A stretch of 62,381 bases of DNA, taken from NCBI GenBank assembly GCA_963810095.1, contig CAWEMM010000005.1, forward strand, positions 1 to 62,381, in the 5' to 3' direction. This DNA comes from an uncultured Chloroflexia bacterium. Lineage in GTDB: Bacteria; Chloroflexota; Anaerolineae; CG2-30-64-16. How positions within the stretch are numbered: position 1 is the first letter of the stretch; each line of letters begins with the position of its first letter. Both the position numbers and the translations under genes were made by a program. Under the pieces are notes generated by a model that saw only the letters and a program-made list of their open reading frames with translations, searched no databases and was not told where the DNA came from. Shown here piece after piece: positions 15,491-47,611 of the stretch.

Positions 15491-16242
15491 GGGGTGTCAG
15501 TCCTCGGCAAGCGCAACGCGCTGAGCAGTAGATGGGCGAGCTTGCAGCGGACGCCAAACGCCAGCAAGCACGGCCCTAGTGGTGAGCACGGGCATCGGCG
15601 CCTCGGGTGAGAGTGCCACCCACCGCCCCGATTATAGACGATCAGCGAGGCGCGGCGCAAAACCCGGCCGACATGCAAGGAAGGAGATGACGAATTTTGT
15701 TGCCAGCACGTAGTGACCTGCGGGCGACACCCGACGCCCCAGATCTGGCTCGCTCTGCTTCGGCAGGCAGCACGCTCGGCCGAAGCGGGCCGAGTAGCGG
15801 TCTTGCGGCCACCCCGCACCTGGACCGCGCATGCGCAATCCGGGGTTAGCGGCATCTGCCCATGATGATCTCAGAGCGATAGCTACCGGGAATAGGGCGG
15901 AGGGTGCACGCCAAGCGTTGCGTCTCACAGGATCGCTCAGGGGGCCTACTGCCGCATTTGGCGACAATCGGCCTTGCTTGCGTGAATCCCGATAATCCTC
16001 GGATTATCGCACTCGGCGCAGAATGACGGCGAAAACCGGCTGAGGAAGCTCATGGCAAAGCCATCGGAGGAATGCGAGGGGAAGGCAGCAAACGAGCCGT
16101 GTGGTCTCATCAAGCCCGTTTTTCAATCCACAGACCTCACGGCTGTCAAAAAGCCTATCCCTGCGGTCTTACAATGCTCCAGATTCATCTTCGCCGAGAC
16201 CACAAGGCTGCCAGTGTCGCGTAGCCGTGTGGTCTGTCTAGA

Positions 16243-16288
16243 AAATGAAAAGACCACAAGGGTGGTCGCTTCACCTACCCTTGTGGTC
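16243..16288 (-). terminator. Rho-independent terminator after the tRNA fragment
   Basis: Minus strand GACCACAAGGGT-13 nt-ACCCTTGTGGTC followed by TTTTCATTT; identical copy at 47325-47370. Confidence 0.7.
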
Positions 16289-16310
16289 GCGCCCCTGGGA
16301 GGGGCGTTAG

Positions 16311-16354
16311 TCGGGGAGAGAGGATTTGAACCTCCGACCTCACGGACCCGAACC
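16311..16354 (-). tRNA. 3' half of tRNA-Pro(CGG), att core; not a complete tRNA
   Basis: GG-TTCGGGT-CCGTG-AGGTC-GGAGG-TTCAAAT-CCTCT-CTCCCCG-A, then CTA; no D-arm or 5' acceptor strand upstream. Confidence 0.85.
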
Positions 16355-16499
16355 ACAAACCTCGATTTTCGACCTCCGACCACACGGCGAGGCGATTTTG
16401 GGTAGCCGTGTGCTCTCCGGTCCCGAAACCCCCTGGTGGTCTCTGGTCGCTCTCTGCAGGTTCGCACCGAGCGGAATATTGAATTCCGGTAACGAGAGG

Positions 16500-16528
16500 A
16501 TTATAGCAGATGCTCGCTGGCTGATCAA
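16500..16528 (-). promoter_or_regulatory. Near-consensus sigma70 promoter firing into the tRNA fragment
   Basis: TTGATC-N17-TATAAT with extended TG; copy 2 reads TTGATT-N17-TATAAT (47610-47582). Confidence 0.75.
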
Positions 16529-16944
16529 GGTGTAACTGCAAACGTGCAAACGCGAGAGGCCGAGGAAGTGCCAGCGACGCAGACCAAGAAAGCTTGCCAT
16601 GGGAAGTACAGATGGTTAGTTGAGCCTCTGAAGTGCACTGCCAAATGGTCAAGCAGGTTGGGTGATGTTGCCTGGAACCACACCCAGGCAGATGGGCGCT
16701 TGGTGGTTGCCGTCACGATCGTCGTTTTGCCAAGAGCATCAGACCAGCCGAGCTAGGGCACCCAGGGGACTAGAACGTTCTGCGCTGCTTAATGGGACCA
16801 ACTGGATGACCCCAAAGCGCGCGCCACAATAGGGAGTTGCACTTCCAATCGAACTTCCTGATTCGCACCTGGCCTCACCAAACCAAGATACTCATCGGCC
16901 CGTTGTTCCGCTGCAATAGGCCAATAGATCTCGCGACTAGGCCC

Positions 16945-17394
16945 TTAAAAAGGTAGTCGCTCGAATCCAGCCTCTTCGGCCCCTCGAGAACGGTTTTCGC
17001 CGGGCGCGTCAAGTATCGGGCGCATCGCTGCGCTGGCCAACAGCCAACGTCCGCTCTGCTTGACCCAGACCAGCGTCGTGCGGAGCTCCATCTCCATACC
17101 CTGACCCTCGTAATTCACCTTCTGCCGCTCACGGTTCATGACGACCGCCGCGTCCCCGTACGCGCGCACGTTTGAGTCATCCCACTCGAGATACTCGTAC
17201 TTGAGGCTGGCCGACGTGAACCGCTGCGGCCACTGCTCCTTGGTGAGCATGAAGCCGCGCGGGCCGACGGCTACGAAATCGTCGGTCAGCGTGCGCTCCA
17301 TATACGCCGTATCACCCTGCCGCTCCGCCGCGGCGAAGTCTTCGGCGATTCGTGCGAGATCCTCTTGGATACGAGTCACATCTGCTCGACTCAT
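16945..17394 (-). CDS. NTF2-like / DUF4440 family protein
   Basis: AERQGD...LTDDFVAVGPRG.MLTKEQW...VRAYGDAAVV...TLVWVKQSGRW. Confidence 0.8.
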   Translation of the reverse strand: MSRADVTRIQEDLARIAEDFAAAERQGDTAYMERTLTDDFVAVGPRGFMLTKEQWPQRFTSASLKYEYLEWDDSNVRAYGDAAVVMNRERQKVNYEGQGMEMELRTTLVWVKQSGRWLLASAAMRPILDAPGENRSRGAEEAGFERLPF

Positions 17395-44916: not shown

Positions 44917-44943
44917 GGCTGAGAATCGGCAGAGGAGAAAAGT

Positions 44944-45756
44944 ATGGAGACGGTACGGTCGGCGGACGGGACGACGATCGCATATGACCGGATGGGACGG
45001 GGCCCTGCGCTTGTCCTGGTAAACGGTGCGAGCGCCACGCGGGCGGATGCGAAGTCCGTCGCCGCAGCCCTGGCGCCCCGTTTCACGGTGTACGCGTACG
45101 ACCGGCGCGGCCGCGGCGACAGCGGCGACACCCAGCCGTACGCGGCCGAACGCGAGGTCGAAGACCTCGACGCGGTGATCGACCAGGCGGGCGGCTCGGC
45201 CTTCGTATTCGGCCATTCATCAGGCGCGGTGCTGGCGCTCGAGGCCGCGCGGCTCCTGCCCGGCAAGGTCAGCAAGTTGGCCCTGTACGAGCCGCCGTTC
45301 ATCATCGACAACAGCCGGCCTCCGACGCCCGAGGACTTCGTCCAGCGACTGAACGGGCTGGTGGCGGAGGGGCGCAGAGAGGAAGCAGCCGAGCTTTGGA
45401 ACAGGAACATAGGCCTTCCGGAGGAAATGATCGCCGGAATGCGGCAATCGCCGTATTGGCCGAGATTGGTCGCCTTGGCGCACACGTTGCCGTACGACGC
45501 CACGATCGTTGGCGACACCGAGTCCGGCAGCCCACTGCCGCTGCGAAAGTGGTCTTCCGTGAGCACGCCGACCCTGGTGATTGACGGCACGCTGTTTCTC
45601 GGTCGGGAGGTGGGACACGAATGGATGCACCACGCGGCGGACGAGATCGGTCGCGTGCTACCAAATGCCCAGCGCCAGACGCTTGAAGGTCAGGACCACG
45701 GACCTGCCGATGATGTCCTCGTCCCGGCGCTCGTAGCGTTTTTCCTCAACGGTTAA
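44944..45756 (+). CDS. Alpha/beta hydrolase
   Basis: SADGTTIAY, YDRRGRGDS, GHSSGA, YEPP, GQDH. Confidence 0.9.
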   Translation: METVRSADGTTIAYDRMGRGPALVLVNGASATRADAKSVAAALAPRFTVYAYDRRGRGDSGDTQPYAAEREVEDLDAVIDQAGGSAFVFGHSSGAVLALEAARLLPGKVSKLALYEPPFIIDNSRPPTPEDFVQRLNGLVAEGRREEAAELWNRNIGLPEEMIAGMRQSPYWPRLVALAHTLPYDATIVGDTESGSPLPLRKWSSVSTPTLVIDGTLFLGREVGHEWMHHAADEIGRVLPNAQRQTLEGQDHGPADDVLVPALVAFFLNG

Positions 45757-46355
45757 CCGGGCCCGGCCCGGGTCGAAGTTGCCGTGATCGAGCGCTGATG
45801 ACAACCGGTAAGCCTCCACACTTCCAGGACTACGATCCGGCCGCTACTTCCATCTACGCGTACGCAGTCGCCGGTCTTCAAACGCGTCGTCGCCTGTTGC
45901 ACGCCCACCACCGCGGGAATGTCGAACTCGCGCGCCACGCCAGACCCGTGCGTGATGAGCCCGCCAATCTCCATCACCGGGCCGGCTGCGGTCAGAAACA
46001 ACGGCGTCCAGCCCGGATCAGTCGATGGACACACAAGGATCTCCCCGGGATCCAGGTGAGCACTGCGTGGATCGAGGATTACCCTTACTCGCCCTTCGCT
46101 CGTGCCCGGCGAGACCGCCTCGCCCTTCAGCTCGCCTTCACTCAGTCCGGTCTCGAGCAATCCTTCATAGTAAGCTTCACCTGTGCTCAGGAGCACGTTC
46201 GGCATCTGCCGGCGCTTGGCTTCGCGCTCATATCCCAGCCGGTTCGTCACAACGATTTGCTTCAAGGCTACCTGCTCACCCTCGGCAAGCTGCCAGAGAA
46301 TCTGCAGTGGTACGAAGAAGATGTCTTGGGCGTTTTCCCGCTGCCCGTACGCCAC
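45753..46355 (-). pseudogene. C-terminal phosphohistidine-swivel fragment of a second rifampin-phosphotransferase-like dikinase
   Basis: DIFF, GEILVCPSTDPGWTPLF, GGLITHGSGVAREFDIPAV. Confidence 0.7.
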
Positions 46356-46483
46356 GAGACGAGACGCGCAGTCGCGGCCGTCCGCTCTCCAACGCTATCG
46401 GGGTACGCCCCGCCAGTGCAGGATCGCGCGCCGTAAAGTACCAGTCGCGTCAAGACAGGGGGCGAAATCCCCCAGCAAGTCGG

Positions 46484-46654
46484 TCAACCGCAGGCCCACG
46501 ATGCCGCCGCGATGTCCTTAACGTCGCTTATGTGAAGTCGCGATCGGCTGACCTCAACATTGAGCAGCTTGTCCGCAGAGATGCCCACCTCCTCGGCGAG
46601 TTCCTTTCGCGTGAGCCTGACGGCGAGGCGCGCGGCTCGAATCCGGCCGCACAT
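46484..46654 (-). CDS. Small XRE-type helix-turn-helix protein or remnant (absent from the ORF track)
   Basis: MCGRIRAARLAVRLTRKELAEEVGISADKLLNVE. Confidence 0.5.
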   Translation of the reverse strand: MCGRIRAARLAVRLTRKELAEEVGISADKLLNVEVSRSRLHISDVKDIAAASWACG

Positions 46655-47041
46655 GGCAGCGTCAGCGGTATCCCTCGGCAGATCCTCCCCTTCTCTTCTT
46701 TGCCGATAACCCTTCCTGATGGCCAGGGTCGCGGCCGAGGCTCAGGCGCCGGCTTGAGAACGCGCTGGCGCACATTGCGGCACCCAGGATCGCCAGCTGG
46801 CCGGCCGGTGCACGACTGCATCGGCGCGATCCAGATCTAGGAGCGAGGTCAGCCGGGCCTCAAGCCGCCGCTCCGGCACGTCATACCGGTTCGACGCGTC
46901 CACCACGGCGGCGACCTTGACCGCCCCGTAGGCTTGCGCAGCGTCAGGCAGCGCCGCATCGGCGTCGGCCTTGACCGAGCCAAGCTCCCCGCAATACGTT
47001 TCGGCCCATCGGACTGCTTCGCGGGGACGCCTCCTCATCTA

Positions 47042-47611
47042 GCGATAATTGGTCTTCGGTGCGTGAATTCCGATAATCAGCGGGTCATCGCACTTGATGC
47101 AAAATCATGGCGAGAACCGAGCGGAGAAGCCCATGAGTAAGCCACCAGACTAATGCGAGCGGAAGGCAGCGAACGAGCCATGTGGTCTCATCAAGCCGGT
47201 TTTCCCATCCACAGACCTCACGGCTGGCGAAACGCTTATCCTTGCGGTCTTACGATGCTGCAGATTCATCTTCGCTGAGACCACAAGGCTGCCAAAGTCG
47301 ACGAGCCGCGTGGTCAATGCCCTTAAATGAAAAGACCACAAGGGTGGTCGCTTCACCTACCCTTGTGGTCGCGCCCCTGGGAGGGGCGTTAGTCGGGGAG
47401 AGAGGATTTGAACCTCCGACCTCACGGACCCGAACCACAAACCTCGATTTTCGACCTCCGACCACACGGCCAGGCGATTTTGGGTAGCCGTGTGGTCTTC
47501 GGCTCTCAAAACCACTGGTGGTCGACGGTCGCCCTCTGCGGGTCCGCACAGAACGGAATATTGAATTCCGGTAACGAGGAGATTATAGCAGAGGGTGGTT
47601 CGCTAATCAAG
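47042..47611. repeat. ~570-bp direct repeat, copy 2
   Basis: Homologous to 15961-16529, including boxes, terminator, tRNA half and promoter. Confidence 0.92.
47393..47436 (-). tRNA. 3' half of tRNA-Pro(CGG), second copy; not a complete tRNA
   Basis: Identical to 16311-16354. Confidence 0.85.

Follow-up and report, generated by a model that had tools for sequence, protein, structure and literature searches.

Why would a bacterial contig carry, within two long direct repeats, the same 3' half of a tRNA gene, with the 5' half present in neither copy? We addressed this question for the complete 62,381-bp contig C5 (CAWEMM010000005.1; hereafter, the window), which belongs to the genome of an uncultured sediment bacterium of the Anaerolineales (G000; 6.13 Mb in 16 contigs, GC content ~65%, largest contig 1.92 Mb). 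The two repeats are probably recombination scars, each consisting of a left arm (L), half of tRNA-Pro(CGG) (the core) and a right arm (R), that join integrase-less islands stacked at the tRNA-Pro(CGG) gene. Under this interpretation, successive integrative elements would stack by site-specific recombination at tRNA-Pro(CGG), leaving L-core-R sites behind, and C5 would be a piece of the accretion array, with module a, a junction, the 30.5-kb module b, a second junction and module c, none of them with a recombinase of its own.

The repeats, identified by repeat search and BLAST at positions 15952-16529 (junction A) and 47033-47611 (junction B), are ~578 bp long each, start 31,082 bp apart and are 85.5% identical over 580 columns. 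Directly beyond 15952 and 16529, identity drops to ~39%, so that the repeat unit is sharp-ended. String comparison reveals an exact 146/146 match in the center (16243-16388 = 47325-47470), with a mismatch flanking this block on either side; by segment, the two junctions are 74-83% identical in L, 100% in the center and 81-84% in R. In junction A, L (15952-16308) adjoins the tRNA segment's 3' end, the core occupies 16309-16354 on the minus strand, and R (16355-16529) stands in place of the tRNA 5' half; the corresponding segments of junction B are 47033-47390, 47391-47436 (minus strand) and 47437-47611. The stretch of L in junction A that precedes 16092 is shared with junction B only.

Each core consists of 46 bp, equivalent to nucleotides 32-76 of tRNA-Pro(CGG) plus 1 base, and begins with the final two bases of the anticodon stem's 5' strand. 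Both cores match the 3' part of the sole intact tRNA-Pro(CGG) of the genome, at C6:27890-27965, in 46 of 46 positions on the minus strand, and ARAGORN predicts no tRNA gene in the window, nor does any Rfam family match it at the gathering score. The first-pass annotation, made from the sequence alone, had sized the repeats at about 570 bp, with coordinates that turn out to be accurate to ~10 bp, had described the identical 146-bp center, and had stated that the repeats contain only the 3' part of tRNA-Pro(CGG), neither being a full tRNA; all of this is borne out here, and the intact gene that it suggested searching for is the one on C6. Thus, the 3' part of a tRNA gene, directly repeated, delimits the elements, as is characteristic of tRNA islands, and the crossover point must fall inside the 46-bp core. 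The flank of the intact tRNA-Pro(CGG) towards an ion-channel gene and tRNA-Arg(TCG) is syntenic in four genomes (G000, G002, G007 and G022), whereas the 3' side is variable, which identifies this locus as an integration hot spot. The G002 flank was also considered as a guide to the far end of the array and proved unhelpful, its left flank matching contig C9 at only 67-69%. As a separate observation, ARAGORN reported at C14:1962-2045 (minus strand) a tRNA that it could not identify, the anticodon of which has four bases (taaa).

The arrangement at the intact tRNA is the key to the two junctions in the window. On C6, the arms are split: core and R lie at 24797-25017, with 89-93% identity to the R arms of the window, and L, 71% identical to the window L, lies together with the intact tRNA at 27689-27965. 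Between the split arms there is only an AbiEii/AbiEi toxin-antitoxin pair, which makes up a 3.1-kb mini-element. The resulting order, int-core-R-AbiE-L-tRNA, which does not include C5, corresponds to the pattern X-core-R-body-L-core-tRNA 5' half, that is, exactly the product expected of recombination between a circular molecule with an L-core-R site and the tRNA gene. Because the arms are split in this manner around the AbiE element at the tRNA, the L-core-R units of the window are interpreted as chimeric attP-type junctions between stacked elements, in agreement with the first-pass proposal that the repeats are attP-like junctions between successive elements. We also considered the AbiE mini-element as a travelling unit and abandoned this idea: its other matches are just 67-72% identical, and none was shown to be flanked by the arms.

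The search for an integrase adjacent to the tRNA or a core, also proposed in the first-pass annotation, led to a tyrosine integrase open reading frame (ORF) on C6 (PF00589, E = 4.5e-40), 76 bp from the distal core, on the side where L stands in the window. This ORF is a pseudogene, with TAG replacing a conserved Trp (L001:9336-9338) and no ATG, GTG or TTG between the upstream stop codon and the conserved N-terminus; given this inactivation, the array is probably frozen now in this genome. The earlier description of the modules as integrase-less stands for the window, which lacks a recombinase; the genome does contain a cognate integrase beside a core copy, albeit as a pseudogene. Integrases of this clade consist of a SAM-like core-binding domain and a catalytic domain, without an arm-binding domain, and their best solved relatives are XerC-like, XerA and XerD. 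A search with the intact protein from G035:C32 as the query listed 34 places in the 37 genomes of the family, and 12 of these lie within ~40-205 bp of a tRNA-Pro(CGG) core when unaligned N-termini are allowed for. In five loci (G016, G004, G006, G026 and G036), a clade integrase directly follows an intact tRNA-Pro(CGG), the classical order of tRNA and integrase. Most likely, this clade of Xer-like, two-domain tyrosine integrases provided the enzyme that made the junctions.

The element that carries the C6 integrase (C6:11000-24797) further encodes DUF3150, an N6/N4 DNA methylase, an IrrE-like peptidase, a HerA-like ATPase and an AAA_25 (RepA-like) protein; at its far end, no repeat of the core turned up. 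A 210-aa ORF without a Pfam family at the end of contig C15 (64899-65528) has a relative at the putative edge of this element (C6:11150-11392, 79% identity), others on C8 (80%) and in the vicinity of the right end of C1 (49%), and a weak one (34%) just left of the L arm of junction B, at window positions 46550-46891.

In both arms, copies of a 10-bp word, GACC(A/T)CA(C/A)GG, are arrayed in order, with 7 in L, 1 in the core and 3 in R. The word reproduces GACCTCACGG, a sequence of the tRNA itself that is located in the core at 16336-16345. In junction A, allowing for up to 2 mismatches, the L sites start at 16097(-), 16133(+), 16159(-), 16198(+), 16225(-), 16252(+) and 16279(-), alternating in orientation, and are followed by the core site at 16336(+) and the R sites at 16378(+), 16406(-) and 16432(-); the 11 sites span 16097-16441. 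Junction B contains 10 sites at 47178-47497, in the same layout, which recurs in the L and R arms of C6 (9 copies in the cluster of L and tRNA, 4 in that of core and R) and in the L arms of G007. The positions of the three R sites are conserved in G035, G030 and G022, which represent two further genera, and the first R site additionally repeats ACCTCC, the six tRNA bases that precede the word. At up to 1 mismatch, the window contains 20 matches, 18 of them inside the two junctions, compared with a chance mean of 5.3 in shuffled sequences, none of which (0 of 100) reached 20. The exact 10-mer family numbers 49 copies in the 6.13-Mb genome, 14 of them in three clusters that contain L; on these counts, we ruled out a genome-wide repeat akin to repetitive extragenic palindromes as the nature of the motif.

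The integrase-side arms of C6, G035 and G030 contain just 1-2 degenerate copies per 600 bp. We infer that the word is a core-type half-site of the integrase and that its extra copies take the place of classical arm sites: they would bind an integrase that lacks an arm-binding domain, building the recombination complex. The attachment design would then be that of a two-domain, Xer-like integrase whose sites have acquired up to ten extra half-site copies in fixed order, replacing the arm-type sites. We know of no description of attachment sites made of iterated tRNA-derived half-sites, although no literature search was aimed at this design. If the motif array recruits the integrase, it would offer a simple, testable model of directionality in a 'simple' tyrosine recombinase, as well as a model for the way in which recombinase-less cargo shares a tRNA hot spot.

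Motif clusters mark not only tRNA-Pro(CGG) but also the tRNA-Val(CAC) sites on contigs C4 and C7, beside a paralogous integrase. The C4 paralog is 52% identical to the C6 integrase and is split between two frames. The region C4:11478-11831 comprises a 48-bp tRNA-Val(CAC) fragment, a motif cluster and this frameshifted clade integrase, and the fragment finds its match in the intact tRNA-Val with which C7 begins (C7:82-234). Probably, C4 joins C7 at tRNA-Val, the two forming a sister island system.

The junctions also contain putative expression signals on the tRNA strand. At the outer end of R in junction A, there is a sigma-70-like promoter (16500-16528, minus strand; TTGATC-17-TATAAT with TG; shuffle mean 0.2), and junction B has a similar site (47582-47610, minus strand; TTGATT-17-TATAAT with TG) aimed at the core. 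These sites match the consensus in 10 of 12 positions, are TG-extended and point across the core towards L; they are found at the same place and on the same strand in all three R arms of this genome and in one of three junctions tested in other genomes (G030:C23). About 45 nt past the tRNA 3' end, L contains a terminator-like hairpin (GACCACCCTTGTGGTC plus a T run; 16252-16267 in junction A and, identically, 47334-47349 in junction B, both on the minus strand), the stem of which is formed by two motif copies. On C6, a terminator-like hairpin is located between the core and int. The sequence of the R-arm site suggests that it may be used as a promoter; placed in an int-core-R junction, it would direct transcription into int, and the hairpin in L would serve as the terminator of the rebuilt tRNA.

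Among the 37 family genomes, L arms are present in three, all of the same genus (g1), namely, G000 and G007 with three each and G003 with one, and R arms in six, including R arms beside the integrase-bearing junctions of G035 and G030. The L arms are 71-87% alike. Independent L-core-R junctions exist in G007:C157 (72% identity), where the core has decayed to 86%, and in the metagenome contig L047, where 83.5% identity spans the L-proximal part, the core and R. Of the other L arms of G007, one lies behind the intact tRNA on C114 and the third on C10. The genes beside the L and R arms of G007, including GH4, MTTB, aminotransferase, LacI, LarA, AFOR and others, are unrelated metabolic genes, with no integrase among them; the relatives thus carry the same arms with different cargo, as anticipated in the first-pass annotation, which had proposed conserved ends with differing cargo. 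Module b itself is mostly absent from 7 congeners, except for one 3.2-kb patch in G002 that matches scattered pieces at 79-90%. A pattern search for core plus R retrieved four loci in genome contigs, all of them already known, and two in metagenome contigs, and the L pattern had no match in viral contigs; a search at the level of the order covered the same 37 genomes as that of the family, again with L in three. The public reads that we searched come from four low-depth freshwater-sediment runs that hold 29-52% of the sampled words, with Logan contigs of 150-550 bp. In run X4, a Logan contig leads into the core at window position 16308 from another sequence resembling L, the end of which is a motif copy; this suggests that further L variants exist in the same sediment.

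The three modules carry unrelated cargo. Module a (1-15951), cut by the contig start, comprises genes of sulfur/redox type together with MalT-type regulators according to Pfam: a LuxR/MalT regulator, two CoA-disulfide-reductase-like and rhodanese genes (one of them split), alcohol dehydrogenase (ADH), an SBF transporter, a nitroreductase-ferredoxin and a MalT/STAND regulator in three pieces. Module b (16530-47032; 30.5 kb), bounded by R of junction A and L of junction B, contains ~36 genes or gene fragments, including hydrolases of detoxification type, glyoxalases, a UvrA-like ABC protein, PadR, TetR, a globin, a BBE oxidase, DUF1579 and PPDK_N/PEP-utilizer fragments. Module c (47612-58000), the end of which is not defined, encodes a UPF0175 antitoxin-like protein, two LuxR-type response regulators, two AI-2E transporters and a GH94 phosphorylase. 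Consistent with the first-pass view of three blocks of unrelated cargo without a recombinase in the window, these gene sets are unrelated; a six-frame search of the whole genome for PF00589 yielded 14 matches, none on C5, no PF00239 match was found in the genome, and Pfam detected no recombinase or transposase family and no integrase, relaxase or type IV secretion system genes among the 77 ORFs of the window. Neither module b nor the modules of G007 yielded leftover transfer or integration genes. C5 has a coding density of 0.72 and a median ORF of 166 aa, compared with 0.84-0.88 and ~300 aa in the large contigs, which is consistent with a decaying island; many of the cargo genes are in pieces, and this breakage suggests real decay rather than general sequencing error.

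Several parts of C5 have counterparts elsewhere in the genome or within the contig. The block of CoA-disulfide reductase/rhodanese and ADH genes (3446-6245) is 86% identical to C15:26685-29451, and the second reductase together with the MalT/STAND regulator (10776-15469) is 76-84% identical to C4:282-10015; this regulator is intact on C4, whereas the window copy is in three pieces. Module a contains an internal duplicate (3455-5125 vs 10776-12445, 75%), and module b a 353-bp direct repeat (17666-18018 vs 20666-21018, 81%) with a spacing of exactly 3,000 bp. PPDK_N and PEP-utilizer mobile-domain fragments, a domain pair typical of rifampicin-phosphotransferase-like enzymes, occur at 33560-36126 and 45753-46355, beside a TetR regulator, and look broken. 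At ~58,000, the GC content falls from ~62% to 45-50%, with 33% near 59,600, and the tail of the window (58000-62381) encodes DUF1254/DUF1214, an S8 peptidase that is split in two and has a Por_Secre_tail (type IX secretion system (T9SS) sorting) domain, as well as BNR/sortilin-like ORFs; this tail represents either foreign, Bacteroidota-type DNA or a chimeric end of the contig.

Several observations weigh against the interpretation of the repeats as accretion scars. None of the six L arms with a visible flank adjoins an integrase, and a tblastn search of five L regions with the G035 integrase detected no integrase remnant in L (best E=1.7), so that a simple origin of L through deletion of an integrase is unsupported; on the same result, we discarded the idea that L is a decayed integrase gene. 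The presumed tie between L and the integrase consists only in the shared motif and the shared core, and the three genomes with L arms, which are 88-90% complete, contain no intact clade integrase (two broken copies in G000, a best match of 36% identity in G007 and none at E<=1e-30 in G003). The promoter-like site is absent from G035:C32 and G007:C157. Furthermore, the assembly provides no link between C5 and the tRNA locus, the C5 ends matching no other contig, and the public contigs cover 15997-16339 and 16452-16657 without a mismatch, with none bridging the stretch between. A misjoin at the 146-bp identical block is therefore conceivable in this assembly: the block, which exceeds common short-read k-mers, would have linked L-core and core-R ends that belong to different islands or to strains living side by side, and the short Logan contigs indeed match L into the core and R into module b, with no joints. 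Among these contigs of 150-550 bp, neither an excision product nor an empty site was seen. The last 4.4 kb, with its low GC content and T9SS-type genes, hints at a chimeric join elsewhere on C5, and C15 breaks ~100 bp before the expected start of an L arm. We nevertheless consider such an artifact very improbable. An assembly of 16 contigs, the largest of 1.92 Mb, fits reads longer than 0.6 kb; L-core-R junctions are found in the independent assemblies of G007:C157, where the core is too diverged for a collapsed repeat, and L047; and the ends can be counted. With four left sides (three L and one int side) and four right sides (three R and one tRNA 5' half), whichever way they are paired, three cores end up with R and lack the tRNA 5' half, so that every combination of the ends implies an array or circles. 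That C5 belongs to the tRNA-Pro array, unjoined as it is to the locus with the intact tRNA and L arm at C6:27689-27965, is what its cores and arms suggest; C3 overlaps the start of C6 at 99%, and a connection of C5 to C3/C6 through a split GH94/cyclic-glucan-synthase gene was rejected, the proteins being just 33% identical over 135 residues. The accretion interpretation explains the break positions of the small low-GC contigs C3, C4, C5 and C15.

Two further explanations concern what the repeats do rather than how they were assembled. In both junctions, the promoter-like site and the terminator-like hairpin bracket a unit on the tRNA strand that includes the 146 identical bases, which would be compatible with a small transcription unit (R promoter, ~140 nt, tRNA 3' half and hairpin terminator, giving an RNA of ~240 nt) duplicated as a gene. 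Such a unit could coexist with the accretion array; as an explanation of the repeats, it is hardly credible, given that it has no Rfam match, that on C6 it is split by AbiE exactly at the core, with L following the intact tRNA as recombination predicts, and that the hairpin stems all use the one 10-bp word, which also occurs at unpaired positions, so that protein sites fit better. The other explanation, the one favored in the first-pass annotation, holds that the modules are a still mobile integrase-less family of 3-31 kb, with L and R as ends specialized for recruiting, in trans, the integrase of a tRNA-Pro element that is either resident in the same cell or newly arriving, and with the tRNA locus as a gene-capture platform. 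L is indeed distinct and elaborately ordered, with its 7 motif copies, rather than a remnant of the integrase side; it is kept in 7 copies across three species, each beside different cargo and never beside int; the minimal 3.1-kb AbiE element has complete arms; and module b and the G007 modules are free of transfer and integration leftovers. However, there is no sign of recent movement, with no identical module found in two contexts (the AbiE homologs being 67-72% identical); the L arms, at 71-87% identity, are old and confined to 3 of the 37 genomes, all of one genus; no L-arm genome has an intact cognate integrase; and the modules are rich in broken genes. Present-day mobility is thus unlikely. 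Similarly doubtful, in our assessment, although the lack of support for a deleted-integrase origin of L lends it some weight, is the most far-reaching form of this idea, in which the modules would be dedicated non-autonomous integrative cassettes, ranging from a 3-kb toxin-antitoxin pair to a 31-kb island, with half-site-iterated ends and mobilization in trans by Xer-like integrases, tRNA-Pro(CGG) being an integron-like capture platform and the R promoter switching the integrase on only at joined ends. Under the preferred interpretation of old accretion, the modules may nonetheless once have moved as units.

Among known systems, the closest match is tandem accretion of cis-mobilizable elements (CIMEs). 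CIMEs of the ICESt1/ICESt3 family are described as integrase-less, transfer-less, att-flanked modules at a target gene's 3' end (PMC5704250), which form tandems joined by chimeric attP-type (attI) sites, with the integrase carried by a neighboring element (PMC5704250). The pattern of C5 matches this already described accretion (PMC5704250). Module b is flanked by two L-core-R sites related to those of an integrative element, and integration and transfer genes are lacking, with no PF00589 on C5, no PF00239 in the genome and none among the 77 ORFs. With respect to descent by decay from an integrative and conjugative element (ICE) or an integrative and mobilizable element (IME), no remnants were found, L is unlike the integrase-side arm, and many cargo genes are broken. 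The modules differ from CIMEs in that they show no ICE/IME remnants and in that L is not an integrase-side arm from which the gene was deleted; in the target, which is tRNA-Pro(CGG) of Anaerolineales; in the arms, which are arrays in which a tRNA-derived 10-bp word recurs as 10 extra copies; and in the neighboring integrase, which is a pseudogene. Cis-mobilization is putative here.

Dehalococcoides and the present host are both members of the Chloroflexota. At the ssrA gene of Dehalococcoides, which encodes a small RNA, several islands are stacked downstream, each with a direct repeat of the 3' end of ssrA as its boundary, and some of them lack an integration module, the authors having suggested CIMEs (PMC3146451). 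These islands have a CcrB-like serine recombinase (DsiB) and a 20-bp ssrA repeat (PMC3146451), in contrast to the Xer-like tyrosine integrase, the 46-bp tRNA segment and the arms of 175 and 357 bp found here. The R-arm promoter-like site, which would read into int in an int-core-R junction, resembles Pcirc of ICEclc, described as an outward promoter at the end opposite int that comes to lie upstream of int once the ends join (PMC5812530). Unlike Pcirc, the site found here is a consensus match only (10 of 12, TG-extended), is present in four of six junctions, and on C6 is separated from int by a hairpin.

The first-pass annotation had likened the modules to a large-cassette analog of an integron. 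In integrons, recombination sites separate the successive units of an array, none of which encodes the recombinase, its gene lying outside them; integrons employ an IntI-type integrase with attI and Pc, and folded attC sites of 57-141 bp. Here, there is no IntI with attI and Pc, the candidate integrase being Xer-like and located beside a tRNA core; in place of attC, there are 578-bp double-stranded attP-like junctions with a tRNA core and 11 motif sites; and the units are multi-gene (3-31 kb), with their own regulators and genes on both strands (~36 ORFs in module b, including PadR and TetR), rather than single, promoterless cassettes in the same orientation. The analogy therefore fails for every defining feature of integrons. 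Integrative mobile elements exploiting Xer (IMEX), such as the CTX/TLC arrays, are integrase-less, use XerCD at dif and pile up in tandem. The elements described here are similar in their tandem accumulation and, on our interpretation, in relying on a Xer-type recombinase whose gene lies elsewhere; they differ from IMEX in that the target is a tRNA gene, not dif, and the recombinase is borne by an element, not the host XerC/XerD. Taken together, accretion of att-flanked, integrase-less islands, known from streptococci and suggested for Dehalococcoides, is extended here to uncultured sediment Anaerolineales, and, in comparison with these systems, the novelty lies in the group of hosts, in an L arm that is separate and integrase-less, and in the att design of a Xer-like integrase, with eleven sites derived from the tRNA.

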